Under the pieces are notes generated by a model that saw nothing but the letters and a program-made list of their open reading frames with translations, had not been told where the DNA came from and ran no database searches. Shown here one piece after another: positions 893-21,002 of a DNA stretch of 64,000 nucleotides. Numbering within the stretch: position 1 is the stretch's first letter; the number at the start of each line of letters is the position of its first letter. Origin of the DNA: Prorocentrum cordatum (Eukaryota); the NCBI GenBank assembly GCA_963575745.1, contig CAUYUJ010000070.1, positions 558,001 to 622,000 of the forward strand, given 5' to 3'. The translations under genes and the position numbers were made by a program.

Positions 893-897
893 AGAGG
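893..897 (+). repeat. 5-bp target-site duplication AGAGG (left copy)
   Basis: AGAGG immediately precedes the left LTR, and the same 5-mer follows the right LTR. Confidence 0.9.
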
Positions 898-1134
898 AGT
901 CCAAAGTGAGCTTGGTAGGTCACATTGCATCCATTTCCATGTCGGGGAATACGATATGTGTATGTGGATGGGTAGGATAGGAGAAGATCGATGTATCGGT
1001 TTTTCCAGCACATGGCGAATACCATGTCAGGTATCCGGGCAAATAGGGCGCGCGTGCCTTGAGCCACAAGGCAGCGACGCGCAGGCTATACTCTCGTGTA
1101 TATATATACACCCCAAAAGAGCTACCCTTAAAGT
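898..1134 (-). repeat. 3' LTR (237 bp)
   Basis: AGTCCAAAGTGAG...GCTACCCTTAAAGT aligns with 17014-17254, with roughly 15 substitutions and a (TA)n length difference by eye. Confidence 0.95.
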
Positions 1135-1588
1135 CGGGAGGGGAGGAGACGGAGAGTAAAGCCGCGCAGTCGCTAGGCTCTCGGCAATCGCGCGACAGCT
1201 CGAACGGAAAAACAGTGCTCGCAATCTAGTTCACCACTAGACAGAAGGGCGAGCTTCCTCGCCGGCGAGTTACCTCGCAAAGGTTTTCCACGCGTTTTGC
1301 AAAGAGAGCCCCTGGGGCGACCAAGGGCTAGCGGCCCGGTTAGAGGTTAGCCAAACAGGATATTCCCCTCCGGGCAAGAGATATTGAGGCAAGGAGCCTA
1401 GGAGAACTGGAAAGGCTCGCTGCCAAGCGTGAAAAATGGCATGGCCCGTTTCCGAGCGAGCTGGAGTGCGCCTACATAATAGGCGCCCGTGCTGGCTAGC
1501 TGGACCGCAGAGGCAACAAGGACAGACTAGAAACGATTCGGCTTCAGTTTTGTTTTGTCCTCAGGGCCCCGAAAATGAACAAACTGCT

Positions 1589-2293
1589 TCACGTCATACT
1601 CAACGACTGAGTACCTGACATCACTTCCAAAAGCAGCTCCCGATCGATACTCCCCTTTGTGTGCCCATCTGCGGTCATGTCCCTAGCGTCACACCACTGT
1701 ATGTTATGCACTATACCTATATCCATGAGCTCACGTATCCAACTGGTATGTCCTAGCAGGGTGCGTTCTGTCGGTATCTTGAGGTCTTTGCTAGACAGTG
1801 ACTTGTATACAGACTCGGCGTCTATCGTGAAGGATACTTTGACAGCCAGGCCTCCAACTTCACGCATATCCCGTAGTTGTCGCGGGGTGAGTGCCCCAGC
1901 CTTGAGCTCGTGGAGGGTGATGAGCGTGGGATAGCATTCATCAAGGTTGTGTGCAGCTGCGAGTGCCTTAGCGGCGTAGCTGGACCTCACCTGCAGTCGG
2001 TGTGACTTGCATAGACCGTCGCAAAGGTGAACGACGGATTTGCCTTGGGGCGAGCTTCCTCGCCTTAGCACGTTAGCCCCGCGAATGCCGTAGCCTTTGG
2101 TCTCGTCGTCCTCCTCCCCGGTGAATCTCCGATAACCAGAGTCACTGTGTATGTCTACCTCACCAGTCGGCTTCATCCGAGGGAAGGTGATGCGTTTCGG
2201 GCTGCTGATCAGCTTTCGCGCCACAGCATTCAGTCGCATGACTTGTAGGTTGGTGGGCTCCTGGATCTTCTGGAGAGACACCACATACACCAT
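1589..2293 (-). pseudogene. Copia RNase H domain (plus RT C-terminus)
   Basis: Motifs IHSDSG, VRSSYAAK(E)ALA, IDAESVY, WCDARDMTADGHTKG match copia RNase H; the conserved E appears as K. Confidence 0.9.
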
Positions 2294-3300
2294 GAGCCAG
2301 ACCTGAGCGAGGAGGCATAGGCGAGAGCTCCTCGCAGGCTAACGAACATGTCGGCAATGAGCTTGGTAGCCTTAGCTTCGGCCGCTGCACCTGTAAGTTC
2401 GGGATGTGTGATAGAACGTAGTTGTTTGATGTACTCGTCTTGGTCCATTATCACATCCCCTTGTTCGTTCTTGGTGTAGCGGACGGTACAGTTGGTGTAA
2501 GAGTGCGTGTTGAGCTTGCACTTGCCAAACACCTTTTCAACACGTTGCACGTAATCATCTACGTGTTTCTCTAAGCCTCTCATGTTGATGTCGTCGACGT
2601 GTTTTGCTGTTAACACATCCTGGCTGAATTCGAATTCTGGATCGTAACTAGTCGTGCGAGGTCTATAGCTCGAGTGGTCGTGCGAAGCTTGAGAGAGAAC
2701 GCCCTTGGGGCGTCTTTCGTACCGGTCCCTGGCTTCAGGCACCTAAGGCAGCGCCGGCTCTCATCATAAGAGGAGAAGCCCGGAAGGGTGCGAAGCACCT
2801 GGGCACCTCCTGGTGGAAGTGCGAAGCAAACCATGCGAGTTTCCTCGCCGGTGGCGTGAGCAAGTTCCTCATATGTCAGGCTTTTGAGGAATGCTTTGTC
2901 AATGTCCGTAGATGCTAAGATCCAGTCTGGATGACACGCCGCTTCACTTGCCAGAAGCCTCTGGGACTGTCGGCGAGCAATTCCCGAGAAGGTTTCCACG
3001 TCGAAAGCTTCCGCGTCCATAAAATCCACGGAGGGCAAGTCTGAGACGGATTGTTTTGACATTCTCGGTGCCCACCTTCACAAACTTCCACTTGCATACG
3101 TATCTTGACGTCGTAACGTTGGAAGTTTTCGATAAATCGTACATATCAAAACAGTGGTTGTCGAGCCAGATCTTGAGTTCGGTGTACAAGGCTTCGCTGA
3201 TATGCTTGGGATGTGCTGCTATGTCGGCCTTAGTAGTGAGTAGGTCATCTTCCTTAACTACTACAGCACGTTCAGCAGCCAATGATACGTATACTCTCAT
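2230..3300 (-). pseudogene. Copia reverse transcriptase, split by frameshifts over ORFs 2944..4254, 2610..3062 and 2230..2742
   Basis: SRYVCKWK, IRLRLALRGF, STDIDKAFL, LKPGTGTKDAPRAF, KHVDD (YxDD equivalent), MDQDEYIKQL. Confidence 0.9.
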
Positions 3301-4229
3301 CGTTGCGACCATACTTGGCTCGAGCTGTGCCAGTTGGATCTGATCCAGTACGACCTTTGTCACTTCTGGCGTAAAGCACAATTCGGCGCATGGGCGATAT
3401 TCGCCACTGTCAAGAGAGTAATCCTCGTCAGGTGTGGTCGAGCATAACGAGACAAAGCTAAACTCTTGCTGTTCAGGCTCGTCGCCGAGCGTATCCGATA
3501 CAAGAAGATCTTCCTCGCCCACCGATGCTGAGACCAAGACACATTGGTCGGGCAGCATAGTAGTTGGGACGCGGTAGAGACATTCGTCGGTCACCGACAT
3601 GGGATGAAGGTCCATACGCAGCTCATCATACCATTCCTCCATCATCATGGCCTGGATGCCGTGTTCCTCGCTTTCCTCGTAGATTGTGGACAGGCGACCT
3701 TCGCTTGGTGATGAAGCACCTGGGGTGCCTGGAGCAGGCCTGTCTCCAGGCTGGCCAGGTCTTTCAGACGTTGTGTCCGAGAGTTGATACTTGACCAGGT
3801 CGTCGTGAAACCCTAGGGAAGGAGCTTTTGACGTCAGGCACTGGATGAGTCTGGAGTGGGTGCTACCAGTGATTTGGGAGATGCTCAAACCGGTGCCTAC
3901 GCACTCGTAGTAGTGGAAGGCTGGGTTGACATCGCTGTCGCAGTGGATCAATGTCGACCCTGTGGCGCACTTGACTGAAGGTAGGTTGGGCACGCTCTTG
4001 GCCAACCTCACGGCTACTACGCGCGCAACTCTGAAGTAGTTTCGCACGAGATACTGTAGTGCCAGACGCGCGGGTGAAACTTGCTGTCGTCGGAGAGGTT
4101 GAGGTTTCCCTGTAGCCAGGGATATAGCCGAACACTTTGGCAGGTTTCCCTGCACCGAGGTGTGCCACGTAAGTGAGGACGGTCTGCATGGCCATGTTGT
4201 CCATGCCAAGTTCCCTGGTGAGAAGGCAT

Positions 4230-5290
4230 TCAATATATAGCGTGCGGCGAGCATCGGGGTACATCACAATCACCTTACGCGATCCTGCCTTGACGACTAC
4301 GCGTCCGCGTTCGGGCACGTTACGGATGGCAGGGAACGGGCCGTTCCAGCCTCTAGGATCGTCCTTAGTGGCCGTGGGTCGGTGATAGTCGACCCGCTCC
4401 CCAGCAGAGCATAGGCGAGCACCATCCGGCGCTGTCTTGGCCCTGAGGGCACGGTTCGTCTTCGCCACCGCCGTTGCCTGAGTTATTGCTTCCAGGCTAA
4501 CTTCCCTCACGCGGCGCTCGCGTTCGTGGCCTGACGTCTCGGGGCCCTTGGGAAAGTCAAGGGTGTCGAGGTCAGGAAGGAAAGAGGGTTGTCGCCCAGC
4601 GCGCGCTTGGCACGGCGATACACCGTTGTAGAACGTGAAAGCGTTAGTGGCGAAGATGCCTTCGGCTAGTACCCTGGTAAATACAATGGGGATGTTCTGT
4701 ATGTTCAGCTCTTCCTCAATCATGCGAAGAGTGCCTCTGAGGATGCCGTTACGCGACTCAATCGAGGTCGCGCGTTGGCCAGGCGCTCGGATACGCAGTG
4801 TCGTACCCTTATGCGCCATCATGGCCTTGGCGGTGTCGTTGTTGAGGGCACCTTCTCCATCCGAGTGCAGTACCTTGAAGGGTCCATGATAGGCGATCCA
4901 GCAGTAGTGGTAGGCGTTGAGTATAGTCTCACGCTCTTTGTCGGGGACTTCTTGGCCTGCTGTCAGGCGAATACATCGGTCCATAATGTGGAATATGATC
5001 CGTTTGTTGTAAAACATGAGATCTACTTCGCCTTCGTCAAGCCAATTTCCAGGGGGGCTCACTGAAGGTAACGTGGAGTTACCTGGGCGCTCCCAAGCTC
5101 TACACTCCCGACAAGTGTCGCAGACTTCTTTAATCATGTTTAATCGAACAGCGTCTAAACCCACCTTTTCGAGGATCAGCCTCATCTTGGGTTCCTTCGC
5201 ATGATACCACTGTAAGTGCAGTTTGCGGAGTTCCTTCTTGACTACATGAGGCTCATAACTGCGGAGGTTCTGCAGACTGCGTTGGATATC
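4230..5290 (-). pseudogene. Integrase (HHCC zinc domain + DDE core) inside ORF 3863..6109
   Basis: LRKLHLQWYH...CDTCREC (HHCC); EVDLMF, HSDGEG and IESRNG give the D,D,E triad; WNGPF C-terminal motif. Confidence 0.92.
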
Positions 5291-6029
5291 AGACCTCGTC
5301 CAGTCAGGCAATCGTGGGGCCCCCGAGCCAGTTGAGGCAAGAGGGTTCCTCGTGGCTCTCCGCAGTCGGCCCCCTTCGGCAACTGCATCTGGTGGTGGAG
5401 GTACACCTTGTAAGCGGCCACGGCGGGCCGCTACCTGTGGTGGTTCGCTCGACGACGCGGAAGGCGTGTTTCCACGCTCGGGCGCGTCTCGCAGTATATC
5501 ATAGCTGCTCGCACCTGATGTGGGATCGGTGTTCCCAGGGGCGCGTGGCCCTGGTGGCCTGGCGCGGGCGCCCTGGCGGCCACCCGATGCCGAGGCTTGA
5601 CCCTCACCCAGCCTGGGCAAGGGGTCCCACCAGGCTGGCACAGTGCGCCCCTCTGGGCCATGGTCATCAGGGAGTTTGAACGGCTCGGCAAAGCGGCATT
5701 TGCCGGGCTCGGTGTCGAGGTGGTTCTTAACACCCTTGCCCCTCGTGAGGTCCTTCTGGCATGCAGGACATGGCCAATATGCGGGGATGGTGTCGTGATG
5801 TTTACACTGTGTAGGATCCCTGTTGTGGCTAGGGCTGTCCTTGCGGACGTTGTCGATGCATGCTGGGCACGCGGCTACTTCTGGAATGACACGTGCACCA
5901 AGGCGTTTCATACGATCTCCCAGTTCGGCTCGATCAGAGAGGTCGGTAGGATAAGCCTGAGCGGTTCGCGCAGGCGCGTCTCCGCGCGCGTTGTCAATGG
6001 CTTTCGCCAGGTAGACGGCTTCCACAAAG

Positions 6030-6640
6030 GCGGACTGCAGTCGTCGGGTATACTGCTGTGCTAGTGAAAGCTCCTTGTTGCACGGCTGCGCATGCATGTG
6101 CCGTTGCACTTGAGCAGCCCGAAGGGTTTAAGAATCGCCTCGTCGTTGCTGGTGATATCCGTCGGCTTCTTGATATAGTCCCCAGCAGTATCCATGAGTC
6201 CCGTCGCACATTGGTCGATGCGTGCAGTTGTAATGTGTGATCGGTCGGCAAGTTCTTTCCATGGGGGATCTGATCCACCCATGTTCCTGTGGGTTGCTCG
6301 CGCATGAACCACCTCCGTGCGTTGTCTTGTGTCAAAGTTATTTTGCCACAGTAGGTTTTGTGTGGCAAGTCTTCTTTGTGGTGCTGTTTCCAAGTGTCGC
6401 AGTTGGCTTGGCAGTTGTAGTAGGATGGTGGTCCTGTGGTGGGGCAGCTCGGCTGTAGAATGGCGACCCGTACGTAGCATACTGCAAAGTAGTGGTCTAC
6501 AGCTCGCTGCACCGAGGGATCTCCCAGGTCGACGCACGTGGTCTTGTCTAGATTGCCGCCTGCGGAGAGGCCTCTTGAGAAGGCAAGCTTTGAAATGCCA
6601 CCCTCACCTCCACACAGCTCCAAGAAGTCGGCGCAGTTGT
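6030..6640 (-). pseudogene. Cytosine DNA methyltransferase-like domain (frameshifted)
   Basis: FLELCGGEGG (motif I-like), LQPSC (motif IV PC-like), MREQP (motif VI-like), then DQCATGL...IKKPT in the next frame; DNMT-bearing retrotransposons are known in dinoflagellates. Confidence 0.75.
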
Positions 6641-6745
6641 TGTTACCAGAGCATAGAGTAGCCACTATATTATATACATCGGCGTGTGTGTCGGGCAGAA
6701 ATGTGGGGAGGGTAGGGAACAGGTCATCTTCCTCGTCAGAGCTGA

Positions 6746-7986
6746 TCAGCTCGACGCGGACGTCAGTGCTCCAGGTCGCCATAAGGTCCTCTCCGAGTCC
6801 TGGCGAGTCATCGCCACTATCGTCGTTTCCATCTTCAACGTGCTTTTTGATGCGGCGAGGCTTGATGCCTGCTTCCTTTTCGGCTTTAAGCCTTTCCTTC
6901 TGTTTGATACGCGATTCAGTGGGTAGAACTTGCTCGTCGTGTTCACCGGTCTGCATGCCCATCGTCGCTGATGAGAGGGTACCTGCAACAATCGCCAGAG
7001 TCGGGAGGGGGAAGGACAGTCATCTATGATGACGCGTCTAGGTTTCTTTGGTGATTGAGCGGGCTCGTTGCCGAGCATGACCTGCTCCTCGGGCTGCCAG
7101 TACAAGCGTGTGCTGATGTTGGCAAACCCTTCGGGCAGTGGTACATGCCAATCATACCCCGTCGGTTGATCGGCTACTGCGATATCCTGGATAACTGTGT
7201 TAGTATCCAGGTTGATCGTCACACGTCGGATAACATCAGACCAATTTGGTCCACCTTTGTTGGTCGTCACATAGATTGTATATTATGGTCCGCACGCGTG
7301 TATGTGCTTAGGTATACCGGCACGTTTCCGTGCATAGTGTTTCCCTTCCCCAGGATCCGATCATTAAGGTGGCGAGTGAGCGTGATGCGTGCTTGTGCTC
7401 TCCATTCGGCATGTCGTGCCGTTTGGCCGTACCCATCCAAAACATGTTGTGGTATCGTCTGTTTGCACGTACATGCCCATAGCTTGGAGCTAATCGGTAT
7501 TGATGTGGCTACCTGCATATGTGAACCACTTGGTGTATCATCCTGCATATTGAACCTAATACCGAAAGGGCATGACCACATCCGCACTACGGCCAGCTTA
7601 AGATCTTCTAGGGTGTCACGTACTGGAGATAACTTCCAAACGTATCCCAGGGGTCCAAACACTATAATCACCATACGGAGCTTCCGTGTCTTCGTCAGAA
7701 GGTTCTGAATGCGTGACCAGTGTGGGGCTACTCTTTTACCTGGGGTCCTTACGTACCAGTCCCCTGGAGCGCTGACCCAGATTAGAGCGTAGTCCCCGCT
7801 AGATACCGCCCAAAAACACTCTGTGCCCACAGCTGTCATGAGCTCGTTGCGGGAGATACGGTCACAGGTAGATCCTCGGGTGCGGAGGTCAGCGCAAGCC
7901 TCTCTCGTATCCTCGATGACGAAAGCTCTCTTTTTATGGCGGGTTGCCCCGCTGTCCCTGTTACCCCCTGGCCTCTCGGCTAGCAT
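6746..7986 (-). pseudogene. Uncharacterised polyprotein segments between protease and DNMT-like domain (ORFs 7267..7986 and 6746..7270)
   Basis: Non-low-complexity ORFs collinear with pol; contains GPNWSDVIRRVTINLDTNTVIQD. Confidence 0.55.
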
Positions 7987-8499
7987 GCAAGGCGACGCGG
8001 GGATAGCGTCGCCCTGCCCTCTTCACGATGAGGAAGAGGGCCTTGTCGCGCTCGCCAGCATCTGAGCTTCTTGCAGATGCTGAAGCTCGGCCTGGCAGCG
8101 CGCGGTAGCCTCAGAGGCGGATTGCTCCGCAAATGTGGCCAGCATAGCCGGGTTGTCCGTTAGCTGCTTCAGGATGCCATTCGACCTCGCGTGGGTGACC
8201 GTCTGCAGCTCGCAAGGCGTGTACCCCATCACTATCTTCTTGCGTGTCTTCAACGCGTCCAACGGTGCAACACCTTCGCCGAGCTGGGCCAGTGTCCTGG
8301 CTACGGAGCAATCGAACGTCTCCAGATCGTCGATGCTGTCGCCTCTCGTCGCCGCCTTGGCGAGGACTGCGAGCAAGCCCTGAGGCAGGTCTCCCTGCAC
8401 CTGTTGGCGCTCTTGCGAAGGAGACGGCTCGCCCGTCAGCACCGTCTGGAATGACGTCGTACTCGTACTTGAGGCGGGTTGCCCCGCGGCCCCAAATCG

Positions 8500-8935
8500 G
8501 TCACACCTGATCGACAGATGGCCTGATGGCAACTTGGCTGTAGGCATGACTTTGGAGCCCTCGGGGAGTTCCATCTTGACCTGCCCCTTCCCTAGGAAGA
8601 TCAGCTTCTCCTGGCCTCGCTCAAGCACAATAATGGCGCGCTTGTCCTGCATGCTGTCGAGGCCCAGGATAGCCGGCAGGTCCTTGCCGCAACCCGACAC
8701 GATGTTGGTCTTGTACGAGTCGATCTGGGTCGAGCCCTGGTACTCGCAGGCAATGCTGAAGGTGCACACGGTGTCGGATGGGGCCGACCCCTCGCCTACC
8801 CCGTTTATGTTGAGCAACGAACGGGGTTCGAACGTACAGGGGCGATTGTGTGACTCAGCAGCCTGAACAAATTTGCGGCTCGTGTTCCACCCCCATTATT
8901 TTGATCTTCGAGCCCACATCTATGAAGATCGCGTT
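8500..8935 (-). pseudogene. Retropepsin-like aspartic protease (frameshifted)
   Basis: AIFIDVGS (D[T/S]G-like) at the end of ORF 8855..11074, then INGVG, LPAILGLDSM and PSGHL in ORF 8023..8817. Confidence 0.8.
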
Positions 8936-9899
8936 GCCGCCGTCCTCGAGAAATTGTCTGCTAGGCTGCTTGACGTGCACCGTTTCTGTTGCGCATTTTG
9001 CGACATCCCGCAGGCTTCCCCGCGTCTGGGACGCGCCTCCTGGCGGGTTTCCCCGCTCCTCTGGAGTTCGGCGCAGCCGCCCGCCGAATAACTCCAACAC
9101 TCTGGCACTCGGCCTGGTCGGTGCATACCTTGGCTGAAAATCCCGATGGAGATTGGCACGGGCCCCCGGCCGCTGTCCCGCGACTATTCGTGCCAGATGG
9201 ATAGCGTTGATGCCTTGTTCTTCCCGCCAGTTCGCATACTCGGCACGTATGCTGGCGCATTGGTCCTGAGTGGTACGGCGCGTCAACATCAGGTATGATT
9301 GCAGAGTTATGTCCTGCAGCCCCTCATCCATGACGTGATCCTGGTACTGCAACCACTCGTCGAACTCGTTGTTCGTGGCTGAGAGCTCGTCGGCCCGGGC
9401 CGCCACTACCGACGTCGCTACTGACGAGCCTGAGATGTCGAGCGTTTCGCTCTCAGGGTCGTTTGCGTCCAGCATGAAGGTAGTGTGCGCATTCTCCATC
9501 TGGGCTTGGAGGTGGCGAACCCGCTGCTGCCGTAGCTGGTCAGGATCCAGCGGCAGCTCGGCATCGCCCCCGCCTTGGGGGGACATCGGAGGAGCCACTT
9601 GTCCGATCCCAGGCTCGTAGTGAGTTGGAGGGACCGGCGAAGGTGGCGCGTTTGGCAGGTTGCCCTGCTGCGGCGCCGGCGTCGGGGTGAGCTGGTCGAA
9701 GTACCCCGTCTCCATCGGCGCGCGCACCTCCTCCGGCAGGCTTCCCCGCTGCTGGAGCTGATCCGCCTGCGTGTCCAGCGTCCTGGCCGTCATCGTTTCC
9801 ACCATGCCCCTCAGCTCCCGCAGCTCCCTCGCCGCTTGTTCGGGGGCCTGCGTGACGGAGCCGGTCCATGGGAACGACGACGCTATGATACCTGGTGCC

Positions 9900-10057
9900 C
9901 GGCAGATGGCACACACGGGTTGTTGGGGATCACCGTCTCGCTGGTTCGTGACATGGCCCACCACGCGCACGTTCCAGCATTCCTCGTGGAATAAATGGTT
10001 GCACCTCATGCGGTAGATGGTCTCCCTCGGCCTGAACTCCTCGAGACACACCGCGCA
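9900..10057 (-). pseudogene. RING-H2 (C3H2C3-type) zinc finger within ORF 8855..11074
   Basis: CAVCLEEF...CNHLFHEECW...CAICR. Confidence 0.9.
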
Positions 10058-11663
10058 GGTGTCTTCCATCCCGGCGTAGACCTCCACGTCCGCCGCCCTG
10101 GGGTACACCCGCCGCTGCCGCTCCAGCACCGCCTCGGCGTCCAGGAAGACAGCTGGGGGATCCCCAGCGACTGGCTGAGCCTCCGGCGCTGGGGCAGCTG
10201 CTGCTGGGGCGGCTGCCACTGCGGAGGCAGCGGGCGACGCTGCCGGCGAGCCCCCTCGCGTAGGTGAGCCCTTGCCCTTGCCCCTCAGTGCCTCAAGGGC
10301 TGCTGCGCGTGCTTGATCACGTACACTCTGCACCGCCTGCCGGCGTCTGAAACACGCCTGTTGGGTGTGGTATGTCTGCCTGATGTAGTCGGGCACTCCC
10401 CTGCTGCCCGAAGATATCACATGGGCTGAGGGCTGGACAACCACGTCCGGCCTCGTCGGTGCAAGCATAAATGACATATGATGGTACATAGACGGATCAC
10501 TGCAACGCGCGTTGGTAAGGCGATGAAATTGGCCCGCTGCTTCACGCACAAACCTATTCGGGAGCCTGGAGCCGTCTGGATACAACGGCGGATCCATGGT
10601 TGCGGCTGGCGGCCTCTGGCCTTGGGCCATGCTCGGGAGGGCATTGAAAACCGGGATAAAGGCTCGCTGCCGAGCGGGGTCGAACGGGTTCGGACCCTCA
10701 GGCTCCCAAGACCAGGCTGGCCTCCACCTCGGACCGCTTGGGTAAGGCAAGTTGTGGCTCTGCACCTGCTGCACCGCGGCTGCCACCCGTGTGCGGTAAT
10801 CGTCCGGCACCCCTGTAGGAATGTTCTGGTTGATCAGCGGTCGGTGCTGCAAAGGAGTGCCGGGCAGGTTCCCCTGCGATGTTGAGGGCGTGCCTGGTGG
10901 CATCATGCCCAGGAGAGCTGTGCCCTGTTCAGCTCGGGCCACGGCGATCCGCCCCATAAGGGTGCCGCTCGGAGCAGGACGCTCGGGTGTCCCGAATGGG
11001 GATTGCACCGGCATCGACGCTGCCGGCGCCATGCCCCTCGGCGTGCGCATGCTGTGCGAGGGGCCCCCTGGCATCTGCTCGAATCGAGCTAGCTATCCGA
11101 AGATGTCGCGGCCAAATGTTTGCGGATCTCCCTGCGGCTCGGGCAAGTCGTTCCTGATCCCGTTGACTGGCAGGTTTCCCTGCAGAGCCTGGCGGTTGCG
11201 CGTCACCATCGCGGACATACCTCCCCGACCTGCAGCCCAGGGGTCTTGTTGATAGAGTCTGTCCGCTAACTGTTCCACCTGCTCGGGGTTCAGAGCAGCC
11301 ACAATCTGATCAAGATCCGCGTTACTGAGGACTTGCCAGGATGCGGCGCTGGGCCCTTGGCTCGGAGCGCGGCTTGGCGGCTGACTGGGAGCCGCACTCC
11401 CCGCCTCACTGGCGTTGATCATGAAGACATGGTGAGTCTCGGGCTGGTTTTCGGCAGCGCGAGTTGGGTTGTAGTGGTCTCCCCACTCTCTCTGGCAGCA
11501 TGCTGATGGGGGCTCGTCGTCACGCCAGAGCGACATCCTGCACCCAATGCTCGCGATGCCCACTGGCTTCGAATTGCCAGGCGCATTCAGTTCGGCCGGC
11601 GTGCATCGTGCACGGCGGTTGCCTAAGTAGTGAGGGTTACGCCACTGCCTGCCGGTGGCGATC

Positions 11664-12420
11664 TCCTCCACATAGTTAATGTAGTAGGGCTCGATGACGC
11701 CGTCGACCCCTTCAGACAGCAACACGCCGTTGTCGGACCAGCAAAACTCGATGTTGTCTCTCAAGGCCTGGCGCCAGTCGATCGAGACGATGATCTCGGA
11801 CTCAGGGCCCCATCCGCTCTGAACGTCACGACGCTGAAGTGTCGGAACGAAGTGGATATGTGATCGCCCGGCCCCTTTCCTCTTGGCGTTGTGCTCCTTG
11901 CGGCAGGAGGGGCCGACCCGCATGATGCCCTCGAAAGCCGCCCACCTTGCACCGTGAACAGCCGCGTCAGGGCACGGGGCCGGTCTCCCGGCTGGGTTGT
12001 CACACAATACGATGTACATGTACAACGACCAAGGGGCCTTGAGCTTCCACGAGTGCCCCTGCGAAGCGCGGACGAAAAGATCAGCCATGCCCGTCTCTCG
12101 CATCAAGACCTTGAACTGCAACCGCTGCTTTTCCTCTCCGTCGGACTCATGGACGTGGACGATCGACATCGTGATTGCAGCCATCTCGTCGACCGACCTC
12201 CTGTAAAAGGTATCGGAGATAATCTTGTGCTCATCGGATTTCGGGTAGTACCCGTCGCGCCGATTGCCGTCCCTCCAGGGAAAGTTGAGCACGAGGTCGC
12301 GGAGGTTGATCCAGACGTCGCGGTCGTCGAACGTCTTCAACTTCCATACTGGGTTGTACGGCCTGTCCGGCGCGTGCCTACAGATCCGACTGAGGCACTT
12401 GCTGAGCTGCTTGAGCTTGT
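11664..12420 (-). pseudogene. kptA: Tpt1/KptA RNA 2'-phosphotransferase domain within ORF 11093..12811
   Basis: LSKCLSRICRH, KQRL, VRASQGHS, HGA (HGT-like), RSHIHF and IVSIDWRQALRDNIEFCWSDNGVLLSEGVDGVIEP give the complete ordered Tpt1 motif set. Confidence 0.88.
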
Positions 12421-13508
12421 AGTTGGTGTTAGGAATGATGCCCCTCTGGCGGCAGCTCGTCATGAACGCCTCGTCGACCGAACGGATAGGAGGAAGCTTT
12501 CGTGGCGCACGCCGATCGAGAATCATCTCCAGGCTTCCGCTCGTGAATGAGGTGTCACCGGGGTGGCGCAGTTCATCTTCTGGTTGGGCTGCTGCCGCTG
12601 CTTCTGGAGCTGCTGCTGATGACGAGGCTGCGGCCCCTGATGATGAAGACAGCGGCGGCAGCGCCCAGCGGGTCTCCCCGCGACGCCTCTTGGCCAGCAC
12701 TGCTTTTGCTAGTAGGCACCCAGCGGCCCCGAGGCATGGCACCCTCCTCGGACTCCTTGGAGCGCGTCGCCACTGGCGCTGCAGGCGTAGGTGTAAACCT
12801 TGTACGCTCAAACGCCTTGGCCTTGTTGGCGAAGGAGCCGCTCCGGCTCGGCTGACGCCTGTGGACCTCTAGGGAGTCCTGCGGCTGTTGCATGGCGTCA
12901 GATCTCCGTGCAGGGCTTGCCCGGGCTGCTGGTATCGGCACCTCGGCGACGGGCCTTCCCATCTGCACGTTGAAGCCAAGCTCCTCGGAGTTGGTAGAAG
13001 GGTTATTCTGCTTTTCGCCTGAGGGCGTCCTATCTCCACGAGTCTCACTGTCGGAAGCCTTTGGGATCGTGGGAAGCTTCCTTGCTTCGGCTTGCGACTC
13101 CTGCAGCATTCGGCGAGTTGCCTCGCGACTGCGTTCTTCCGCCAACCGCTTGCGTTCTGCCTCTGCTGCGGCTCGTTGGACCTCCAGCTCGTCGTCGCTC
13201 GTCATTTCGCATGTGCGGGACTGGCTAAATACGCCAGGCGGGTTTTCCCGCGGCGAGCGAGTCATTGGGGAAGGAGGATCGCTGAGGCGCCTGGCCTCGA
13301 GACGGCTGTTGACCACGCTGATCTCTTCCTGAGTCATGGGCACAAGAGGTGGATGACCCTCCTTTGCAGGAGTGCGGCCTCTGTTGGGGCTCAGAACGTC
13401 GCTGGGGCCGACAGGACAGCCAGGTCGGTGTTCCTGGAAATCCTTAGAGCACGGGCCGCAGGCCGCGTCAGGCCTGCAGCGGCGGCGCTCCTCGACGACG
13501 GCTCTCAG

Positions 13509-13638
<130 letters not shown>

Positions 13639-15269
13639 GCACTGCCTCTTTACCAGGACGTCGAATGTTCGTAGCGACCTGATGTCCGCCCCGTATAGAC
13701 CTGCCCTGAGCGCCCCCGTAGATCGGATTGCCCAGTCCATAGGCAGAGCGTTCGCCCGTTCTGCGCCTGGGATCGTTGTAGGCCAGCAGCTGACCCCCGC
13801 GTCGGGCAGCGTGCTCTGCTGGAGCTGCCTGCCGATGCTCACGTGGGAGTCGTCCTTGGGGGTGTTGATCGTCTCTGGGACGCGTGTGTGAGCGAGACCT
13901 CCTGGCCCGGTCGCCTGCTGGTGGCGTCGCTGGCATGGCCTGGGCAGGAGTTGGCGTCGCGTGCTGGACAGGAGTGGGCGGCACATGGTGGGCAGGCAGG
14001 TCTCCCTGCTGGTGAGGGTCGGTCATGGCGTGGTCGTGTGCGGGTTGTCGTGCGTTGGTCTCGTCTTCGTCGAAGTCCACCTCCTCGTCCTCGCCGTCGA
14101 TGTTCGTCATGAGGATGGTGGTCTCGTCCTCGCACAGTCCACAGCAGTCCCCATCTTCGGCTTCTGAGGTCGGATTGCCATTGATAAGAGTCAACGGCCC
14201 ATTCGGGACAGGCAGGTTTCCCTGCTGTGGTGGCGTCTGCGCACCGCTAGGCTGTCCTGGCGTTGGTGGTATGATGGTCGGACCAGGCTCGTTACCGAGC
14301 TCGGCGTACGTCTCGAGCTGAGCGTAGTCGTAGGAGGGCTGCCCGATGATGTTGCGCATAGCCGTATGGCCGGGGTAGTACCACGCCGCCTGGAGACCCC
14401 ATCCAGGCGGAGGAGGTGGCTGTTCGCTGCTGGTGCCGGGCCCGTTTCCGAGCTCATCTTCGCGCTCGTGGGTACGAGCATGGCCCCGCTCGCGCGTGGT
14501 GATGGCCCGCTGAGGGGCTTGGCGCCAGCGCCCCCTCGCGCACCATAGGTGCCGCTGTACGTCGTCGGGGAGCGCACTGTCGATGAGAGAGAAGGCAGCC
14601 GTCAGCAAGTCCGCGTCGTCACAAATGTCTGAGTCCTGCAGCATCATTTGGCCGCTCTCGACATTTTGCTGACTGTATGGATACTCTTCAGTTTGAGCGG
14701 CATGCATCTGCATGAGGGTCTGCAACGCCGTGTATGGTCCGTACACACCCGGCGCGAGCATGCCAGGTGGCTCATGCGGGTTGCCTGGCACGCCCGCGGT
14801 GAAAGCATGGGCCTCCGTCTCCATCAACTCGCGGTAGTGTGGCTGGTACACTGGAGTAGGCCCGTTTCTGGGCAAGGGGTCGAACTGGTGCTGAATGTCA
14901 CACTCAACCTCCGAGGGCGTGGCTTCGGCGGTGTCGACCTCCATCTCGTCCTCGTCGCTGCTCTCGAAGGCCATGATGTTGCCTGGATTGCCGAACATCC
15001 AGTCATGGAACGAAAGGGGCTGGTTTCCCAGCGCCCCGCCCTCAACAGGCGTGAGCTCGACGGCTCCGATGTTGCACAGGCGGAGGCACTCGAGGTAGAA
15101 GGCGTAGAGCCCGTGGCCGCACGCCCCGATCTCGTCCAGCGCGTCCATGTTGCTGACCCACGTGAAGAAGATCTGCTCCATGGCCTCGAACTGCTGGAGA
15201 CTGAAATACTCAATCGCGGGTTCACTTGAGCCCAAATGAACCTCGGACGTTCTACCCTTTCCGTTCCCC

Positions 15270-16600
15270 TCCACTGGACAATCCTTCACAAGATGGTCTG
15301 GGTGATCACATCCATGGCACTTCAAGATTTGGCCTTCTCTACCTCGCGGGTTTCCCCGCCTACCTTTGCCTTTGCCTGAGGTTCCCCCACGGCCTTTCCC
15401 ACGACCCTTTCCCCCGAAAAATATTTCGTCATACTGATCGTCTGAGAGCCTCTGGAGGAAAGTCGTGATGCCCCGTCCGTTCAACCTTCGGCGACCCCGT
15501 TTGCCCTTGCCTTTGCCCTTGAAGCTCCTCCTGGTCCTCCTCCTCCCGCGACGCACTGGTTTCGTGTAAACCTCCTCCACCTACGCTTTGCTTGCTGTAA
15601 TAACCAAAACAGATGCTCGGCACGCTGATCGCCACTTTCTATTTGCATGATATCTGACCAATCGAACGGTTCGACACCACCTGACGATATCGCGTCGGTG
15701 TCAGTGTCTGAGTCAAAGTCATCATCTCCTAAGTAGGTGGATACTCCGCCGCTCAGTGGGTTCGCTTCCCCCCATAGACAGAGGCGAGGCTGAGGTTCTC
15801 TAGGAGGAGGGCTGGTTGCCAAACTAGGTTGTGATATATCCCCTGCTAGTAGTGCGGTAGTTTCACCAGGATCGTCGGCCCATATGTTTGCGGGCACATT
15901 TCCAGGCTGAGCACCAGAGGTTAAGGTAGTATAGACAGTTCCACTGCCAGTTCCCCTTCCCCTTCCAAATACTGATCCAATATTCCCAGGAGGCCGTTCG
16001 GCCAAATGGCCAACCGAGCGCATCCTCTCACACAGATATTCATACTGTTGCTGTGTTCGGGGCAATTGATGGTTCAGTGGTTGTACGAGTTGCATGGCTC
16101 GCTGGTTGCCGACGCCTAAGGCGCGGAATAGGATGGTCGTAAGTAGCTGGAAGCTGTGAAGATCAAAGCCCACCGAATGTGCCTCAAGACGGGCCATTTC
16201 GAACCGCGCGAGGGTTACGTCGATTCGCTCTCCGTGAGGCACGTGGAAGTCGATGAGCTGAGTGCCTGAGGTGAGTTGGCGCTCGTCCTCTAGGCGTTCG
16301 AACTTCATGTTTAGGAGGAACATGATATATGTTACTGGGTCGGTGTGGACACCGCCGATGTCCGCACCATTGTTTATGATGTCAGGATGTCAGGTGGAAC
16401 CCTCATGGCGAGTGTCCTCGCGAGGCCGCCCAGGCCGCGTTGGATGGCGGCCGCTTGGGCTTGTGGCGTCATGCGCCCGCTCGTGGCGTTAAGCCACGCG
16501 TTGGCCTCGCAGACGTAGTCGCGAAAGGGTGCGTTGCCTTGCGGGTCCCAGTAGGGGCCATGTGCTTGCCCATCAGTTCCGTTGTCTCCTCGGCGCATGT
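15270..16600 (-). pseudogene. Gag-like region with CCHC zinc knuckle (frameshifted over three ORFs)
   Basis: PYWDPQGNAPFRDY...W...T N-terminal motif, helical capsid-like ORF 15481..16323, GKGKG repeats and CHGCDHPDHLVKDC at about 15278-15320. Confidence 0.8.
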
Positions 16601-17039
16601 GTCCGATTGCCGCGCCCAGCGCGAACCATAGAATGGCGAGGATAACCAAACCCAGGCTGTGGAGGTATGGCTGGCTATCGGGCGCGTTGCCGCGCTGGGG
16701 CATGGGTGGTTGCGCCTTGTCAAGTCTGCGAGGCGCCTTGTCTTGCGGGTCCCCCCGCTTGAGTTTCAGGTACTGCGCCTTCGGCTCGTTTCCGAGCGGT
16801 CGGTGATAGCGTAGTGATGAAGCGTATGTGGTACCAATGTTGTTGTCTAGACGTCGTACCTCTCGTGTTGCTTCTTGGTCTTGAGTTGGTCCTCGTAGGT
16901 GTTGGTGGAGTGGTAGCGCAGGGTAGAAAGTGGTCACGAGGATCGTGCCCAGTAGCATAAGTGTGAGAAGGGCAAGAGCTGACCACACGAGAGTGCGGCC
17001 AGCTCCGCTACCAAGTCCAAAGTGAGCTCGGTAGGTCAC
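16374..17039 (-). CDS. First ORF of the element: two hydrophobic segments in frame with the Gag N-terminus
   Basis: LVWSALALLTLMLLGTILVTTFY and LGLVILAILWFALGAAIG precede the PYWD motif; the true start codon is uncertain. Confidence 0.5.
   Translation of the reverse strand: MTYRAHFGLGSGAGRTLVWSALALLTLMLLGTILVTTFYPALPLHQHLRGPTQDQEATREVRRLDNNIGTTYASSLRYHRPLGNEPKAQYLKLKRGDPQDKAPRRLDKAQPPMPQRGNAPDSQPYLHSLGLVILAILWFALGAAIGHMRRGDNGTDGQAHGPYWDPQGNAPFRDYVCEANAWLNATSGRMTPQAQAAAIQRGLGGLARTLAMRVPPDILTS
17003..17013 (-). promoter_or_regulatory. Primer-binding site TGGTAGCGGAG (probably tRNA-iMet)
   Basis: Abuts the 5' LTR, begins with TGG (complement of CCA) and resembles known iMet PBSs such as TGGTAGCAGAG. 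Confidence 0.85.
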
Positions 17040-17254
17040 ATTGCATCCAATTCCATGTCGGGGAATACGATATGGGTATGTGGATGGGTAGGATAGGAGA
17101 AGATCGGCGTACCGATCTTTTCAGCACATGGCGAATACCATGTCAGGTATCCGGGCAAATAGGGCGCGCGTGCCTTAAGCCATAAGGCAGCGACGCGCAG
17201 GCTATACTGCCGTGTATATATATATATATACCCCCAAAGAGCTACCCTTAAAGT
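17014..17254 (-). repeat. 5' LTR (241 bp)
   Basis: Direct repeat of 898-1134, followed on the minus strand by the PBS. Confidence 0.95.
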
Positions 17255-17259
17255 AGAGG
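17255..17259 (+). repeat. 5-bp target-site duplication AGAGG (right copy)
   Basis: Matches 893-897. Confidence 0.9.
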
Positions 17260-17939
17260 GGCCCAGATGGGGTCATCCATGCTTCCCGGACGCATCAGTG
17301 ACACAGGCTCTAGCACCACGCACCCACCCCGCTTGTGCAGAGCAGTCCTGGAGACTCTTTGTCCAATCCAGCCGACGCAGGCACAGGTCTCAGAACTCCC
17401 TCCCTCACGCCACCCTCTCCCAATTTTACCTCCCTACTTCGCTCCCTTTCCTTCGCCTCCCTTCCTGCAATCCGTTCCCTCGCCTAGGTCCCTGTCGCTC
17501 CCCTCCCTTCCCATTCCTCCTCTTTGTCTAACAGTCTGTCCCGATACACCCATACAGATACCCCCCTTGCCCGAATTCCGATAAGACGGCGCCTTCTTGA
17601 AGCATATCTTGCACTGGGTCTTGGCTGCTATCTGCTGGATGTGCGAACCTCGGCGGCAAATTACGGACAACCCATCACATACATGAATCGGAAAGGAGGG
17701 GCGCAAGGAGGAGGAAGGAAAGAGAGCGAGGGTGCAGCAGCGGGAGCGAGGGGAAAGGAACCAAAGGTAGCAGGGGAACGGGAAAAGCGAACTGGAGGGA
17801 GCGAGAGCAATCGCGGAAGGGAAGCACGCTGGAATGTAGTAGCCGAACTGGGCGCAGGGCAGGACATGTAACGACGGAGACAGGCAGAACAAGATGGGAA
17901 CTAGACGACGCCAAAATAGCCGCAACTGGCAATCGTGAG

Positions 17940-18642
17940 TGTATACATATATACATATACATGTAGGTATACATCTGCATGCATGCATGCATGCATACCT
18001 GCATGCGTACATGTACATACGTACCTGCATGCATGTATACATGTATACATGCATGCATGCATGCATGCATGCATACATACATACAGCCATACAAGTGTAA
18101 ATGCATACATCTATACATACATGCGTATATACAGATGTGAATCCATATGTATGTACATACCTGCGTACCTACCTACGTACATTCATGCATACGCACATAC
18201 ATGCATACATACTCGCACTCATGCATGCATACGTATATACATATATATATACATAGATACATGCATGCATGTATGCACGCATGCATGTATGCAGGTATAC
18301 ATACATGCATATCTGCAGACAAACATACATACATATATACATACGCACACATAGTTATATACACCTAATTACATACACATATACATAGATGCACGCATTC
18401 ATCCATCCATGCATCCATCCATCCATACAGTCGTCCATCAATACATACATACATGCATGCATGCATGCATGCATGCATACATACATGCATACGCATATGC
18501 ATGCATACACATGCAGGCATGCATACATACAGCCATACAAACATGCATGTGTGCATATATGCACACATGCATTTCGGCACACATACACATACATGCATGC
18601 AGGCAGACAGACAGACAGACAAACATACAGACAGACAGACAT
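17940..18642. repeat. Compound tetranucleotide microsatellite (CATG/CATA/CATC/CAGA)
   Basis: Directly visible. Confidence 0.95.
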
Positions 18643-19065
18643 ACTCCCATTGTTCTATATTTCTATCATGTGGGACCCCTGCGGACCCCCTCCCCCTTCG
18701 GGATCCCCGGCGCCCAGGGCTCCTGGACGTCCCCTCAGAGGGTCCGGCAAGATGTCCCGGCCCCCAGAAGTCCCTGCCAAGCCTTGCAAATGGGTCGGCG
18801 GCGGTCCCAAGAGACCCCCATAGACGGTCCAAGATGGCCTCCAGCGGCTCCACACGCCCGAAGACAATACAAACTTCACCCCCGAGGGCTTTCGAAACGC
18901 AGAAAAAAACATCCCAGCAAAGCCTCCTAACAGCGATGTGTAGGAGCATATCTGGAACCATTCCCCTTAAGATTCAGATGAGAATCCAGTTGTAGAATTC
19001 TGCTGTTCTCGCAGTCGTAGTCGCATTCGCGATGACAGTCGCAGTGGCAACGGCAGTCGCAATTC

Positions 19066-20568: not shown

Positions 20569-21002
20569 GCATTCAAAATGTGGCCCAGGAATGGAGTTCT
20601 GGGAACTCGAAGAACACGAAGTGGCCTACAGTTGGCTCCGGGCATTCAAAATCATGCCCAGGAATGGAGTTCTGGGAACTCGAAGACCACGAAGTGGCCT
20701 ACAGTTGGCTCCGGGCATTCAAAATCATGCCCAGGAATGGAGTTCTGGGAACTCGAAGACCACGAAGTGGCCTACAGTTGGCTCCGGGCATTCAAAATCA
20801 TGCCCAGGAATGGAGTTCTGGGAACTCGAAGACCACGAAGTGGCCTACAGTTGGCTCCGGGCATTCAAAATCATGCCCAGGAATGGAGTTCTGGGAACTC
20901 GAAGACCACGAAGTGGCCTACAGTTGGCTCCGGGCATTCAAAATCATGCCCAGGAGTGGAATTCTGGGAACTCGAAGACCACGAAGTGCGTTACTGTTGG
21001 CT
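20569..21002. repeat. 73-bp tandem repeat, about 5.9 copies
   Basis: GCATTCAAAA unit starts at 20569, 20642, 20715, 20788, 20861 and 20934. Confidence 0.95.

Follow-up and report, generated by a model that had tools for sequence, protein, structure and literature searches.

A 16.4-kb copia-order LTR retrotransposon at positions 898–17261 of the window (the whole 64,000-nt stretch of Prorocentrum cordatum DNA analysed here), with the minus strand as its sense strand, carries about 30 intact copies of a short GNRA hairpin and several decayed ones. The motif is almost certainly a selected nucleic-acid structure, and this structure is read on the sense strand. We tentatively propose, with rather less than even confidence in the statement as a whole, that the hairpins are a selected sense-strand motif serving as packaging recognition sites, specific to the lineage and read by Gag.

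The limits of the element are given by direct repeats at 898–1108 and 17014–17224 (94%) and at 1099–1141 and 17219–17261. Its landmarks are as follows.

898..1141, minus strand: 3′ LTR, about 245 nt, from direct repeats and alignment
17014..17261, minus strand: 5′ LTR, from direct repeats and alignment
17002..17013, minus strand: primer-binding-site-like (PBS) 12-mer, directly adjoining the 5′ LTR
15275..15322, minus strand: CCHC zinc knuckle of the Gag nucleocapsid, from the translation, with Arg/Lys/Gly-rich stretches on both sides

The 12-mer also directly follows the LTR in the related lineages L005 and L006, and the knuckle matches zf-CCHC_2 weakly (residues 87–102, E 0.61). The element also encodes a Tpt1/KptA domain (RNA 2′-phosphotransferase), whose lineage-specific segment carries hairpins too.

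The hairpin has the form GC-NN-G/GNRA/C-N'N'-GC, mostly followed by C, with a stem of exactly 5 bp; none of the copies has a sixth pair. A C follows the stem on its 3′ side in 24 of 28 copies, whereas a G precedes it on the 5′ side in two. The loops found are GAAA, GAGA, GCAA, GGAA, GGGA, GTAA, and GCGA, and the copies in the window comprise 11 different stems with unrelated flanks. They are listed here in sense order.

16784..16797, minus: GCTCG GAAA CGAGC, phase 2; opens the 5′ cluster, 205 nt past the PBS
16745..16758, minus: GCGGG GGGA CCCGC, phase 2; absent from the initial list
16682..16695, minus: GCGCG GCAA CGCGC, phase 2
15346..15359, minus: GCGGG GAAA CCCGC, phase 2; within the basic nucleocapsid part
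15019..15032, minus: GCTGG GAAA CCAGC, phase 2
14440..14453, minus: GCTCG GAAA CGGGC, phase 2; one U·G pair
14287..14300, minus: GCTCG GTAA CGAGC, phase 2
14212..14225, minus: GCAGG GAAA CCTGC, phase 2
13996..14009, minus: GCAGG GAGA CCTGC, phase 2
13359..13372, minus: CTCCT GCAA AGGAG; GNRA loop, outside the GC...GC family
13113..13126, minus: GCGAG GCAA CTCGC, phase 1
12668..12681, minus: GCGGG GAGA CCCGC; at the overlap of two long frames
11979..11992, minus: GCCGG GAGA CCGGC, phase 0; within the Tpt1/KptA domain
11170..11183, minus: GCAGG GAAA CCTGC, phase 2
10864..10877, minus: GCAGG GGAA CCTGC, phase 2
9655..9668, minus: GCAGG GCAA CCTGC, phase 2
9043..9056, minus: GCGGG GAAA CCCGC, phase 2; near-miss at 9010, 33 nt downstream
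8474..8487, minus: GCGGG GCAA CCCGC, phase 0
8385..8398, minus: GCAGG GAGA CCTGC, phase 2
8117..8130, minus: GCGGA GCAA TCCGC, phase 0; closing pair A-U
7939..7952, minus: GCGGG GCAA CCCGC, phase 1; G·U at one stem pair in run X1 contigs
7320..7333, minus: GCACG GAAA CGTGC, phase 2
7063..7076, minus: GCTCG GCAA CGAGC, phase 2
5974..5987, minus: GCGCG GAGA CGCGC, phase 2
5464..5477, minus: GCGTG GAAA CACGC, phase 2; shared site upstream of the integrase
4140..4153, minus: GCAGG GAAA CCTGC, phase 0; within a conserved integrase C-terminal peptide
3738..3751, minus: GCCTG GAGA CAGGC, phase 2
3477..3490, minus: GCTCG GCGA CGAGC, phase 2
2835..2848, minus: GCGAG GAAA CTCGC, phase 1; within a conserved reverse-transcriptase peptide, in the window only
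1444..1457, minus: GCTCG GAAA CGGGC; one U·G pair, non-coding 3′ sequence
1265..1278, minus: GCGAG GTAA CTCGC; non-coding 3′ sequence, a GAAG-loop copy directly after

The pattern GCNGGGNRACCNGC matches the window 15 times, always on the minus strand (4140–16758), against a mean of 0.25 and a maximum of 2 in 100 dinucleotide shuffles. For the wider pattern GCNNGGNRACNNGC the count is 31, of which 30 lie on the minus strand (1265–16797) and one on the plus strand (37964), compared with a shuffle mean of 2.95 and maximum of 8. Counted as perfect 5-bp GNRA hairpins, the element holds 29 on the minus strand and none on the plus strand, and the remaining 47 kb of the window two on the plus strand and none on the minus strand. 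Two further family copies in the element (14440 and 1444) have one G·U pair each. All family hairpins lie between the two LTRs and extend from 205 nt past the PBS to the 3′ untranslated part. The initial annotation had listed 15 such 14-mers; all of them exist on the minus strand, 14 among the GCNGGGNRACCNGC matches and the one at 16682 through GCNNGGNRACNNGC, but the list understated both the number and the extent of the copies. The near-misses that it mentioned are real but weaker, those at 9010 and 9737 having a GAAG loop with one G·U, that at 13238 an AAAA loop, and that at 4101 three pairs only.

Two stem positions covary, which bears out the covariation noticed earlier and speaks for a structure. 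Among the 30 minus-strand GCNNGGNRACNNGC sites, picked without requiring pairing, both free pairs are Watson–Crick in 27, two sites have one G·U, and one (14776) is unpaired; at the plus-strand match at 37964 the free positions are unpaired as well. The covariation score is 0.509 versus 0.089 in shuffled data and was reached by none of 500 shuffles, and true partners are paired in 98.7% of cases versus 23–47% for slid partners. Copies with a single mismatch on the sense strand have G·U 11 times, A·C twice, and other mismatches six times, and the corresponding antisense counts are 0, 2, and 4. An excess of G·U over A·C is the usual mark of RNA pairing. The hairpins probably fold in the RNA, where their predicted stability averages −7.9 kcal/mol and their predicted mean pair probability, in a 134-nt context, is 0.81. 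The restriction to the sense strand would suit the plus-strand DNA as well as RNA, and GNRA-type DNA mini-hairpins are unusually stable. The hairpins might instead work in the plus-strand cDNA while it is single-stranded, with a part, for example, in priming, strand displacement, or protection as reverse transcription proceeds. We regard this as quite unlikely. The 11 to 2 ratio is a signature of RNA pairing, and no primer-length purine tract is common to all copies. Moreover, a census of 5-bp sense-strand hairpins with any loop finds GAAA (17), GAGA (12), GGAA (9), and GCAA (8) commonest, with antisense counts of 0, 1, 0, and 2, and such a preference for GNRA over every other loop is typical of RNA tetraloops.

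The protein sequence does not account for the hairpins. When codons were shuffled synonymously with the proteins kept (300 shuffles), the mean was 3.3 hairpins and the maximum 8, versus the 29 observed. In a table of 32 hairpins, 30 lie on the stop-to-stop coding path and two in non-coding 3′ sequence. The copies do read in different frames, as the initial annotation had it, and occupy all three phases, but it understated the bias, since 20 of the 30 coding copies share one phase, encoding X-Gly-Asn/Asp-X-Pro, with six in phase 1 and four in phase 0. This bias would favour a repeated peptide, e.g., a protease cleavage or turn motif, with the hairpin as a side effect, and so would a nucleocapsid site in the relative L001, where a similar peptide is kept without the hairpin. 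The peptide reading is nevertheless scarcely credible and was rejected, as it is contradicted by the synonymous shuffle, the phase table (ten copies in other phases and two non-coding), and the covariation. The residues flanking Gly-Asn/Asp track codon reverse-complementarity (Q..L, R..P, L..E, H..V, R..A, and R..T), which is meaningless for a peptide. Against our preferred reading, a proxy test at the peptide level found no more than a weak excess of compatible X-G-N/D-X sites in 23 related proteins (30 versus 22.6 ± 4.1 expected). The phase bias also tells against it; we explain this bias by protein tolerance, Gly-Asn/Asp-X-Pro being turn formers, although a role linked to translation may lie behind it. 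The earlier claim of a nucleic-acid rather than a peptide signal is strongly sustained by the covariation, shuffle, phases, non-coding copies, G·U excess, and compensatory changes alike.

Those compensatory changes come from relatives. In 12 related metagenome loci (45.7 kb) there are 25 sense and four antisense hairpins, with a shuffle mean of 1.56. Stems are characteristic of the lineage: TCACG in L005 (10/10), GCACG in L006 (4/4), GCGCG in L009, and TCGTG in L003. Shared sites hold their pairing through compensatory changes; the site upstream of the integrase (5464 in the window) has three different paired stems across four lineages, those of L003, L004, and L009 differing from that of the window, and the changes there cost amino-acid changes. 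Short tandem duplication gave rise to some of the copies. In L005, L003, and L009 there are tandem pairs with similar flanks, spaced 33–51 nt, and the L005 copies have about 24 nt in common, flanks included, which would suit a neutral array spread in reverse transcription by template switching or by such duplication. Individual selection of every copy is therefore not needed. As an account of the whole array, however, a mutational by-product is very improbable, since point substitutions created the hairpins at 4140 and 2835, leaving the length unchanged and altering otherwise conserved residues, the window has 11 stems in unrelated flanks, the GNRA loop, 5-bp stem, and sense strand are always kept, and shared sites stay paired. 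The window and L005 have about 2 hairpins per kb, and L002 has one perfect sense copy in 6.7 kb; such wide differences make a strict need for the hairpins in assembly doubtful.

What the structure does is less certain than its selection. GNRA loops are classical tertiary-contact modules, and with many copies along the RNA they might dock into helices of the same molecule and draw the 16-kb genome together with no need for a protein to read them. This seems quite unlikely, because the canonical GAAA-tetraloop receptor does not occur in matching numbers (one of the two halves has a single sense-strand match, and only one candidate receptor-half pair lies within 200 nt), so the RNA compaction suggested initially is unsupported for this receptor. 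Docking would also leave the fixed stem base, exact 5-bp length, 3′ C, and lineage-specific stems unexplained.

A different RNA-level role is possible, though we doubt it. Everything that speaks for selection of a sense-strand structure holds for it equally, and the hairpins could be bound by a factor of the host or some other protein of the element (for nuclear export, exonuclease stability, or localisation), pause the ribosome or reverse transcriptase, or be substrates of RNA modification. The 20/30 phase bias might point to a connection with translation. Modification might be directed at the unpaired C that follows the stem; the invariant cytosines could be modified by a conserved domain of the retrotransposon family for which C5 cytosine methyltransferases, Dnmt2 among them, are the closest neighbours in structure (Z 5.3–6.9), and the window element has its RNA 2′-phosphotransferase domain. 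Against a methyltransferase substrate, the matches have Z < 8 with dehydrogenases mixed among them, and against a role of Tpt1, no Tpt1 was found in the NC-to-RING interval of L001, which still has hairpins. Rfam gives no matches for the hairpin at E ≤ 1, which counts against a known export or stability element. Lineage-specific stems would arise more easily through co-evolution with an element-encoded reader than with a conserved host factor.

In the packaging reading, the sense strand, i.e., the genomic RNA/mRNA of the element, carries a unit with a 5-bp stem, fixed G-C/C-G base, fixed G-C closing pair, and GNRA tetraloop, in which the two middle pairs covary freely and the 3′ side usually has an unpaired C. 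Most copies sit in tolerant polyprotein parts, in the phase reading X-Gly-Asn/Asp-X-Pro. Their likeliest role is that of multi-copy, lineage-specific sites at which an RNA-binding protein encoded by the element would recognise the RNA. The foremost candidate is the basic nucleocapsid part of Gag with its CCHC knuckle, which would select the RNA of the element among thousands of competing copies and condense it into particles. The knuckle lies between Arg-rich stretches, and packaging fits the lineage-specific stems and the cluster just downstream of the PBS (three hairpins at 205–307 nt in the window; four at 109–367 nt from the same PBS word in L005). [quoted passage not shown] Against Gag as the reader, zinc-knuckle nucleocapsids favour exposed G in loops, and GNRA loops are compact. 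Against packaging, the retroviral and Ty signals described so far are, to our knowledge, confined to the 5′ region and not genome-wide. We know of no repeated uniform hairpin motif described for Ty1/Ty3. In the phage N protein/boxB system a short arginine-rich peptide reads a 5-bp stem with a GNRA-type fold, and the Gag of the element likewise has Arg-rich stretches beside its knuckle; boxB, unlike the element hairpins, has a pentaloop, occurs once or twice per operon, and acts in transcription antitermination.

Among retroelements, Ty1/Ty3 resemble the element, as far as the source's account goes, in that their RNA is both mRNA and packaged genome, with cis elements within the coding sequence (PMC4974528). 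In alpha- and gammaretroviruses, packaging involves GACG tetraloops; the short hairpins that bear them are placed 3′ of the primer-binding site, often as a pair (PMC516450), as is the cluster in the window element and L005. They are described there in the 5′ leader only, with a loop able to kiss (PMC516450), whereas the element has GNRA loops and copies that run on across gag and pol into the 3′ untranslated part. Single-stranded RNA viruses use many dispersed stem-loops with a common loop motif as packaging signals, and those of MS2, picornaviruses, and the HBV pregenome are, like the hairpins here, short, scattered in the coding sequence of the packaged strand, and built on one loop recognition motif with varying stems that leave the proteins intact (PMC6281560). 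In that account they are degenerate, found statistically, and read by icosahedral coat proteins (PMC6281560), whereas copies in the element are near-uniform (exact 5 bp, fixed end pairs, GNRA) and belong to an LTR retrotransposon. A literature search found no paper describing such a hairpin array in retrotransposons, and a dispersed GNRA hairpin recognition signal looks to be undescribed for them; the array may be to retrotransposons what dispersed packaging signals are to single-stranded RNA viruses.

The sense (minus) strand of the 16.4-kb LTR retrotransposon at positions 898–17261 of the window carries a real and strongly non-random array of short hairpins. The pattern GCNGG-GNRA-CCNGC, recognized in the initial annotation, matches 15 times in the 64-kb window, always on the minus strand (4140–16758), against a mean of 0.25 and a maximum of 2 in 100 dinucleotide-preserving shuffles of the window. 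The free stem letters, which had been claimed to covary, are indeed complementary in all 15 matches. The accompanying list of copies was correct, except that it missed the one at 16745, and its fifteenth entry, at 16682, falls under a wider pattern. A scan for GNRA loops on perfect 5-bp stems of any sequence, in which the loop is a selection criterion and hence present in 29 of 29 hits, gave 29 hairpins on the minus strand between 1265 and 16797 and none on the plus strand there; the remaining 47 kb, both strands included, hold two, both on the plus strand. The earlier impression of a signal limited to one strand of the element thus withstands counting. GC stands at both the start and the end of 28 of these 29 hairpins, and the loop-closing pair is G-C in 27. 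Two further family copies with one U.G pair (14440 and 1444) bring the total to 31 sense-strand copies with a shared loop motif, dispersed along the element from 16797 to 1265, and the consensus is GC-NN-G / G-N-R-A / C-N'N'-GC. The base 3' of the stem is C in 24 of 28 copies, the base 5' of it is G in only 2 of 28, and a sixth stem pair is never present. The near-misses reported previously, with GAAG or AAAA loops or one broken pair, resemble decayed copies, as fits the 94% identity between the two LTRs of this insertion. Curated covariance models of Rfam gave no match at E <= 1 on either strand of 600–17600.

Covariation can be assessed without circularity with the pattern GCNNGGNRACNNGC, which leaves four N free of any pairing demand. 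It matches 30 sites on the minus strand and one on the plus strand (shuffle mean 2.95, maximum 8). Both free pairs are Watson-Crick at 27 of the minus-strand sites, two sites have one G.U and one is unpaired, as is the sole plus-strand match. Across the 30 aligned sites, pair 3-12 is GC in 12, AU in 8, UA in 5, CG in 2, UG in 2 and another combination in 1, while pair 4-11 is GC in 15, CG in 9, AU in 3, UA in 2 and another combination in 1. The covariation score of this alignment is 0.509 compared with 0.089 after shuffling, a value reached by none of 500 shuffles, and sliding the partner by 1–3 columns lowers the paired fraction from 98.7% to 23–47%. Counting GGNRAC sites, 27 of the 71 on the element's sense strand form all four outer pairs, compared with 0 of 21 antisense to the element and, outside it, 1 of 88 on one strand and 0 of 81 on the other. 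On all the evidence, we are close to certain that the motif is a selected nucleic-acid structure.

Several observations bear on the molecule in which this structure acts. When every perfect 5-bp hairpin with a loop of 3–7 nt was counted without bias in the element and its relatives, GAAA (17), GAGA (12), GGAA (9) and GCAA (8) proved to be the commonest non-repeat loops on the sense strand; the antisense counts are 0, 1, 0 and 2, respectively. Where a G-C-closed GNRA site has a single outer pair that is not Watson-Crick, this pair is G.U in 11 cases, A.C in 2 and another combination in 6 on the sense strand, compared with 0, 2 and 4 on the antisense strand. Such an excess of G.U over A.C is the usual signature of pairing selected in sense-strand RNA and, as a sequence pattern, lends indirect support to RNA folding. 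The hairpins have a predicted mean RNA stability of -7.9 kcal/mol, and within 134 nt of context their predicted mean pair probability is 0.81, whereas the antisense version reaches 0.56. Plus-strand cDNA has the same sequence as the RNA and would present the same array, but in view of the G.U excess an action of the hairpins on plus-strand DNA seems unlikely.

The organization of the carrier is listed below.

Features of the element in the order of its sense strand, all on the minus strand
17014–17261 and 898–1141: direct repeats (LTRs) of ~245 nt (repeat search, alignment)
17002–17013: primer-binding-site-like (PBS) 12-mer directly after the 5' LTR (sequence)
First in order: Gag with a CCHC knuckle between Arg/Lys/Gly-rich stretches (translation; weak zf-CCHC_2)
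11093–12868: RNA 2'-phosphotransferase domain Tpt1/KptA, PF01885, in the upstream ORF after Gag (E 4e-18, 66.5 bits)
8855–11092: RING finger (zf-RING_2/zf-RING_11) in the Gag-side ORF, after the Tpt1 segment (E 1e-8 to 2e-10, family range)
After the RING finger: protease-like part (order along the strand)
After the protease-like part: conserved domain (order along the strand)
Before the integrase: methyltransferase-like domain (structural neighbours of a predicted model)
After the methyltransferase-like domain: integrase (HHCC and D,D,E by eye)
After the integrase: reverse transcriptase (weak RVT_2, 20.3 bits, below cut-off)
Last in order: RNase H (translation)

Two LTRs and a PBS after the 5' LTR identify an LTR retrotransposon. 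Both the translations and the full-length relatives place the integrase ahead of reverse transcriptase and RNase H, which, judged from sequence, looks like the copia order. RVT_2 scores fall below the curated cut-off of 31.6 bits (20.3 in the window, 20–30 in relatives), and precomputed PF07727 and PF00665 (RVT_2, rve) annotations exist in some relatives. Related proteins with 38–58% identity share the architecture of the window element. Several frame breaks interrupt this copy, which is probably inactive. A sequence search of solved structures returned none for the protein P0002 and, for the Gag ORF, nothing above chance level.

The Tpt1 domain has no counterpart in the matching interval, from nucleocapsid (NC) to RING, of the related metagenome locus L001, and owing to this absence the segment appears to derive from a host gene that was captured in a lineage-specific way; we know of no report of Tpt1 in an LTR retrotransposon. 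The RING finger is kept in the upstream ORF of the family (L001 1670–3589, L003 1–1563, L006 3–2153), and a homologue search with the RING ORF found none at E <= 0.001 among 8000 scored candidates of 409–1304 residues. The conserved domain between the protease part and the integrase (window ~5997–7019, minus strand; L002 1387–2124, L001 4748–5485, L003 2557–3306) has no Pfam match. Its AlphaFold model (pLDDT 76.7) has as best structural neighbours, at Z 5.3–6.9, MET1, DIM-2, ZMET2, DNMT1, DNMT3A/B, M.HhaI and Dnmt2, mixed with short-chain dehydrogenases, which is suggestive of a relationship to C5 cytosine methyltransferases. According to de Mendoza et al. 2018 (PMC5890265), Copia elements of Symbiodinium are without a DNMT domain. 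In the window (TGA, 8023–8025, minus strand), an in-frame stop separates the ORF that contains the protease from the pol domains after it, and three relatives have one at the equivalent position, there TAG followed by G (L001 3590–3592, L003 1564–1566, L006 2154–2156). It is a candidate for programmed read-through, which would be unusual for copia-order elements.

Since most of the array lies in coding sequence, a peptide could in principle account for it. Of 32 hairpins listed, 30 lie on the stop-to-stop coding path and two in the non-coding stretch that separates RNase H from the 3' LTR. The coding hairpins use all three codon phases, as stated in the initial annotation, which understated a real bias: 20 of the 30 read X-Gly-Asn/Asp-X-Pro, while 6 are in phase 1 and 4 in phase 0. 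The accompanying claim of a nucleic-acid rather than a peptide signal is well founded, as the hairpins are lost in the codon-preserving shuffle that had been proposed as a check. When synonymous codons were shuffled with all proteins kept, a mean of 3.3 hairpins and at most 8 (300 shuffles) were left of the 29 observed, and codon permutation left 1.7. The residues flanking Gly-Asn/Asp are encoded by reverse-complement codons (Q..L, R..P, L..E, H..V, R..A, R..T, P..R), and the hairpins at 4140 and 2835 arose by substitutions that left the length unchanged but replaced conserved residues, in peptides that every aligned relative conserves. These three lines of evidence argue that the peptide is not the cause. 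A peptide-level proxy for the hairpins in 23 related proteins gave 30 against 22.6 +/- 4.1 expected, a weak and non-significant excess. A peptide repeat or cleavage motif was therefore rejected, conservation at the amino-acid level failing to explain the codon shuffles, the phases and the covariation, and we regard the probability of a peptide motif as close to negligible. Gly, Asn, Asp and Pro are loop-forming residues, and for this reason the phase bias is read as tolerance on the part of the protein. The regional distribution agrees with such tolerance: the integrase core (~4200–5260) has no hairpin, a single one falls in the reverse transcriptase-RNase H part, and they are numerous in Gag and the linker-rich parts.

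Related elements extend the picture. An integrase-alignment scan of metagenome contigs yielded 12 loci (45.7 kb in total) with 25 perfect sense and 4 antisense hairpins (shuffle mean 1.56, maximum 6 in 200 shuffles), and 23 of the 25 sense copies are G-C-closed; no relatives were found in viral contigs. If a single G.U is tolerated, the sense count rises by nine, with five of the extra copies in L001. Density ranges from ~2 per kb in the window and L005 to a single perfect sense copy in 6.7 kb of L002. Stem identity is homogeneous within an element and differs between lineages.

Sense-strand stems in related metagenome loci
L005: TCACG/CGTGA, 10 of 10
L006: GCACG/CGTGC, 4 of 4
L009: GCGCG, n=2
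L003: TCGTG, n=2
L004: GCGCG, n=1

A shared site upstream of the integrase stays paired throughout (GCGTG/CACGC in the window, GCGCG/CGCGC in L004 and L009, TCGTG/CACGA in L003), and pairing is preserved through changes that replace amino acids (T to A, P to I/N). A second shared site reads TCACG in L005 and GCATG with G.U in L006, and L002 has a one-mismatch version. The other sites are lineage-specific gains, some of them through tandem duplications of 11–12 codons that carry the hairpin (L005, L003, L009). Such duplications would be expected if the array were their neutral by-product, which is nevertheless very unlikely, given that the stem is kept by compensatory change both across the window copies and at sites shared with relatives. 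The Tpt1 segment, missing from the corresponding interval of L001, bears hairpins at normal density in the window, so that sequence joining the element acquires them. A uniform GNRA hairpin of exact length is thus kept by selection in multiple copies on the sense strand of the family, independently of protein sequence.

The family is abundant in sequencing run X1 (apparently DNA), with 5740 contig pieces of 80–99% likeness over 898–17261 and a very high summed depth. Transitions dominate the differences from the window, and among the best-supported 40 differences one touches a hairpin. Depth is several-fold lower over ~9.1–15.1 kb, the segment with Tpt1, and many family copies are therefore probably without it. 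A (TA)n(GA)n microsatellite (sense reading) at 13491–13636, at the upstream edge of this segment, may mark the junction of the captured sequence. Runs X2 and X3 cover only low-complexity stretches. In L005 (3697–4136) and L006 (8339–8601), a stretch the size of an LTR comes after the end of pol and leads into the PBS word and the Gag start known from the window, an arrangement that could reflect tandem copies, circles, or an assembly running through the LTR. Large simple-repeat arrays adjoin the window element at 17925–21075 (GCAT/ACAT-type at 17.9–18.6 kb, CAGCCT-type at 18.9–20.6 kb), with a 73-nt tandem repeat at 20496–21075. The stretch 36000–50000 has 68–74% G+C and long open frames on both strands without a Pfam match. 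Sixteen long ORFs elsewhere in the window also gave no Pfam match, a tRNA search of the window found none, and 100 N at 51687–51786 represent an assembly gap.

The retroviral packaging region lies just downstream of the PBS. Three hairpins of the window (16784, 16745, 16682) are situated 205–307 nt downstream of the PBS at 17002–17013, and in L005 the same PBS word (4125–4136) is followed by four (4245, 4281, 4464, 4503) at 109–367 nt. This position is that of the retroviral 5' packaging region, whereas the window copies are not confined to the leader but span the whole element. Multiple stem-loops with a shared loop motif are described as packaging signals (PSs) in ssRNA viruses (PMC6281560), and GACG tetraloop hairpins are described as taking part in packaging of alpha- and gammaretroviruses (PMC516450). 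PS-mediated assembly is the closest concept, and its defining features that can be read from sequence are found in this element. We infer the mechanism by reasoning: the hairpin would fold in the genomic RNA, and a protein reader would measure the loop, the unpaired 3' base and the 5-bp stem. The lineage-specific stems would be best explained by a reader that the element itself encodes and that co-evolves with the signal, the Arg-rich CCHC nucleocapsid of Gag being the obvious candidate. For this reason dispersed, lineage-specific packaging or assembly signals are the favoured reading, a plausible one that we hold at somewhat less than an even chance. Another role at the RNA level, in export, stability, pausing or modification, would draw on the same evidence for a selected sense-strand structure and is a possible, somewhat less likely explanation. 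Protein-free compaction by tetraloop docking would make use of the GNRA loops, but the canonical GAAA-tetraloop receptor is not enriched in the element, and we consider this quite improbable.

Dispersed cis-acting RNA hairpins are known, and the novelty lies in their LTR-retrotransposon carrier; a literature search that left bioRxiv supplements and subscription journals outside its range found no description of repeated GNRA hairpins in a retrotransposon. How LTR retrotransposons choose their own RNA for packaging is poorly understood outside the yeast Ty elements. Here the signal is clean, countable, mutable and visible in sequence, a 14-nt hairpin with ~30 repeats and natural stem variants in sister lineages. 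It opens to test the existence of dispersed packaging signals in retroelements, the codon-by-codon reconciling of RNA structure with protein coding, and signal-reader co-evolution under competition among copies. Annotators of protist genomes and metagenomes can also use the motif as a practical marker of the family and of how far, and from which strand, it is transcribed. More tentatively, the hairpins might serve as barcodes, each sublineage carrying in its ORFs ~10–40 copies of a 5-bp GNRA hairpin of its own, to be read by its own nucleocapsid or another element protein; in a bolder variant, the invariant cytosines would be methylated by the element's own methyltransferase-like domain. If barcodes exist, kin RNA would be packaged and thousands of rival or defective copies in the same genome excluded, and the family would then be the first retrotransposons known to use a genome-wide, PS-mediated packaging code, one in which an RNA signal and its protein reader co-evolve.
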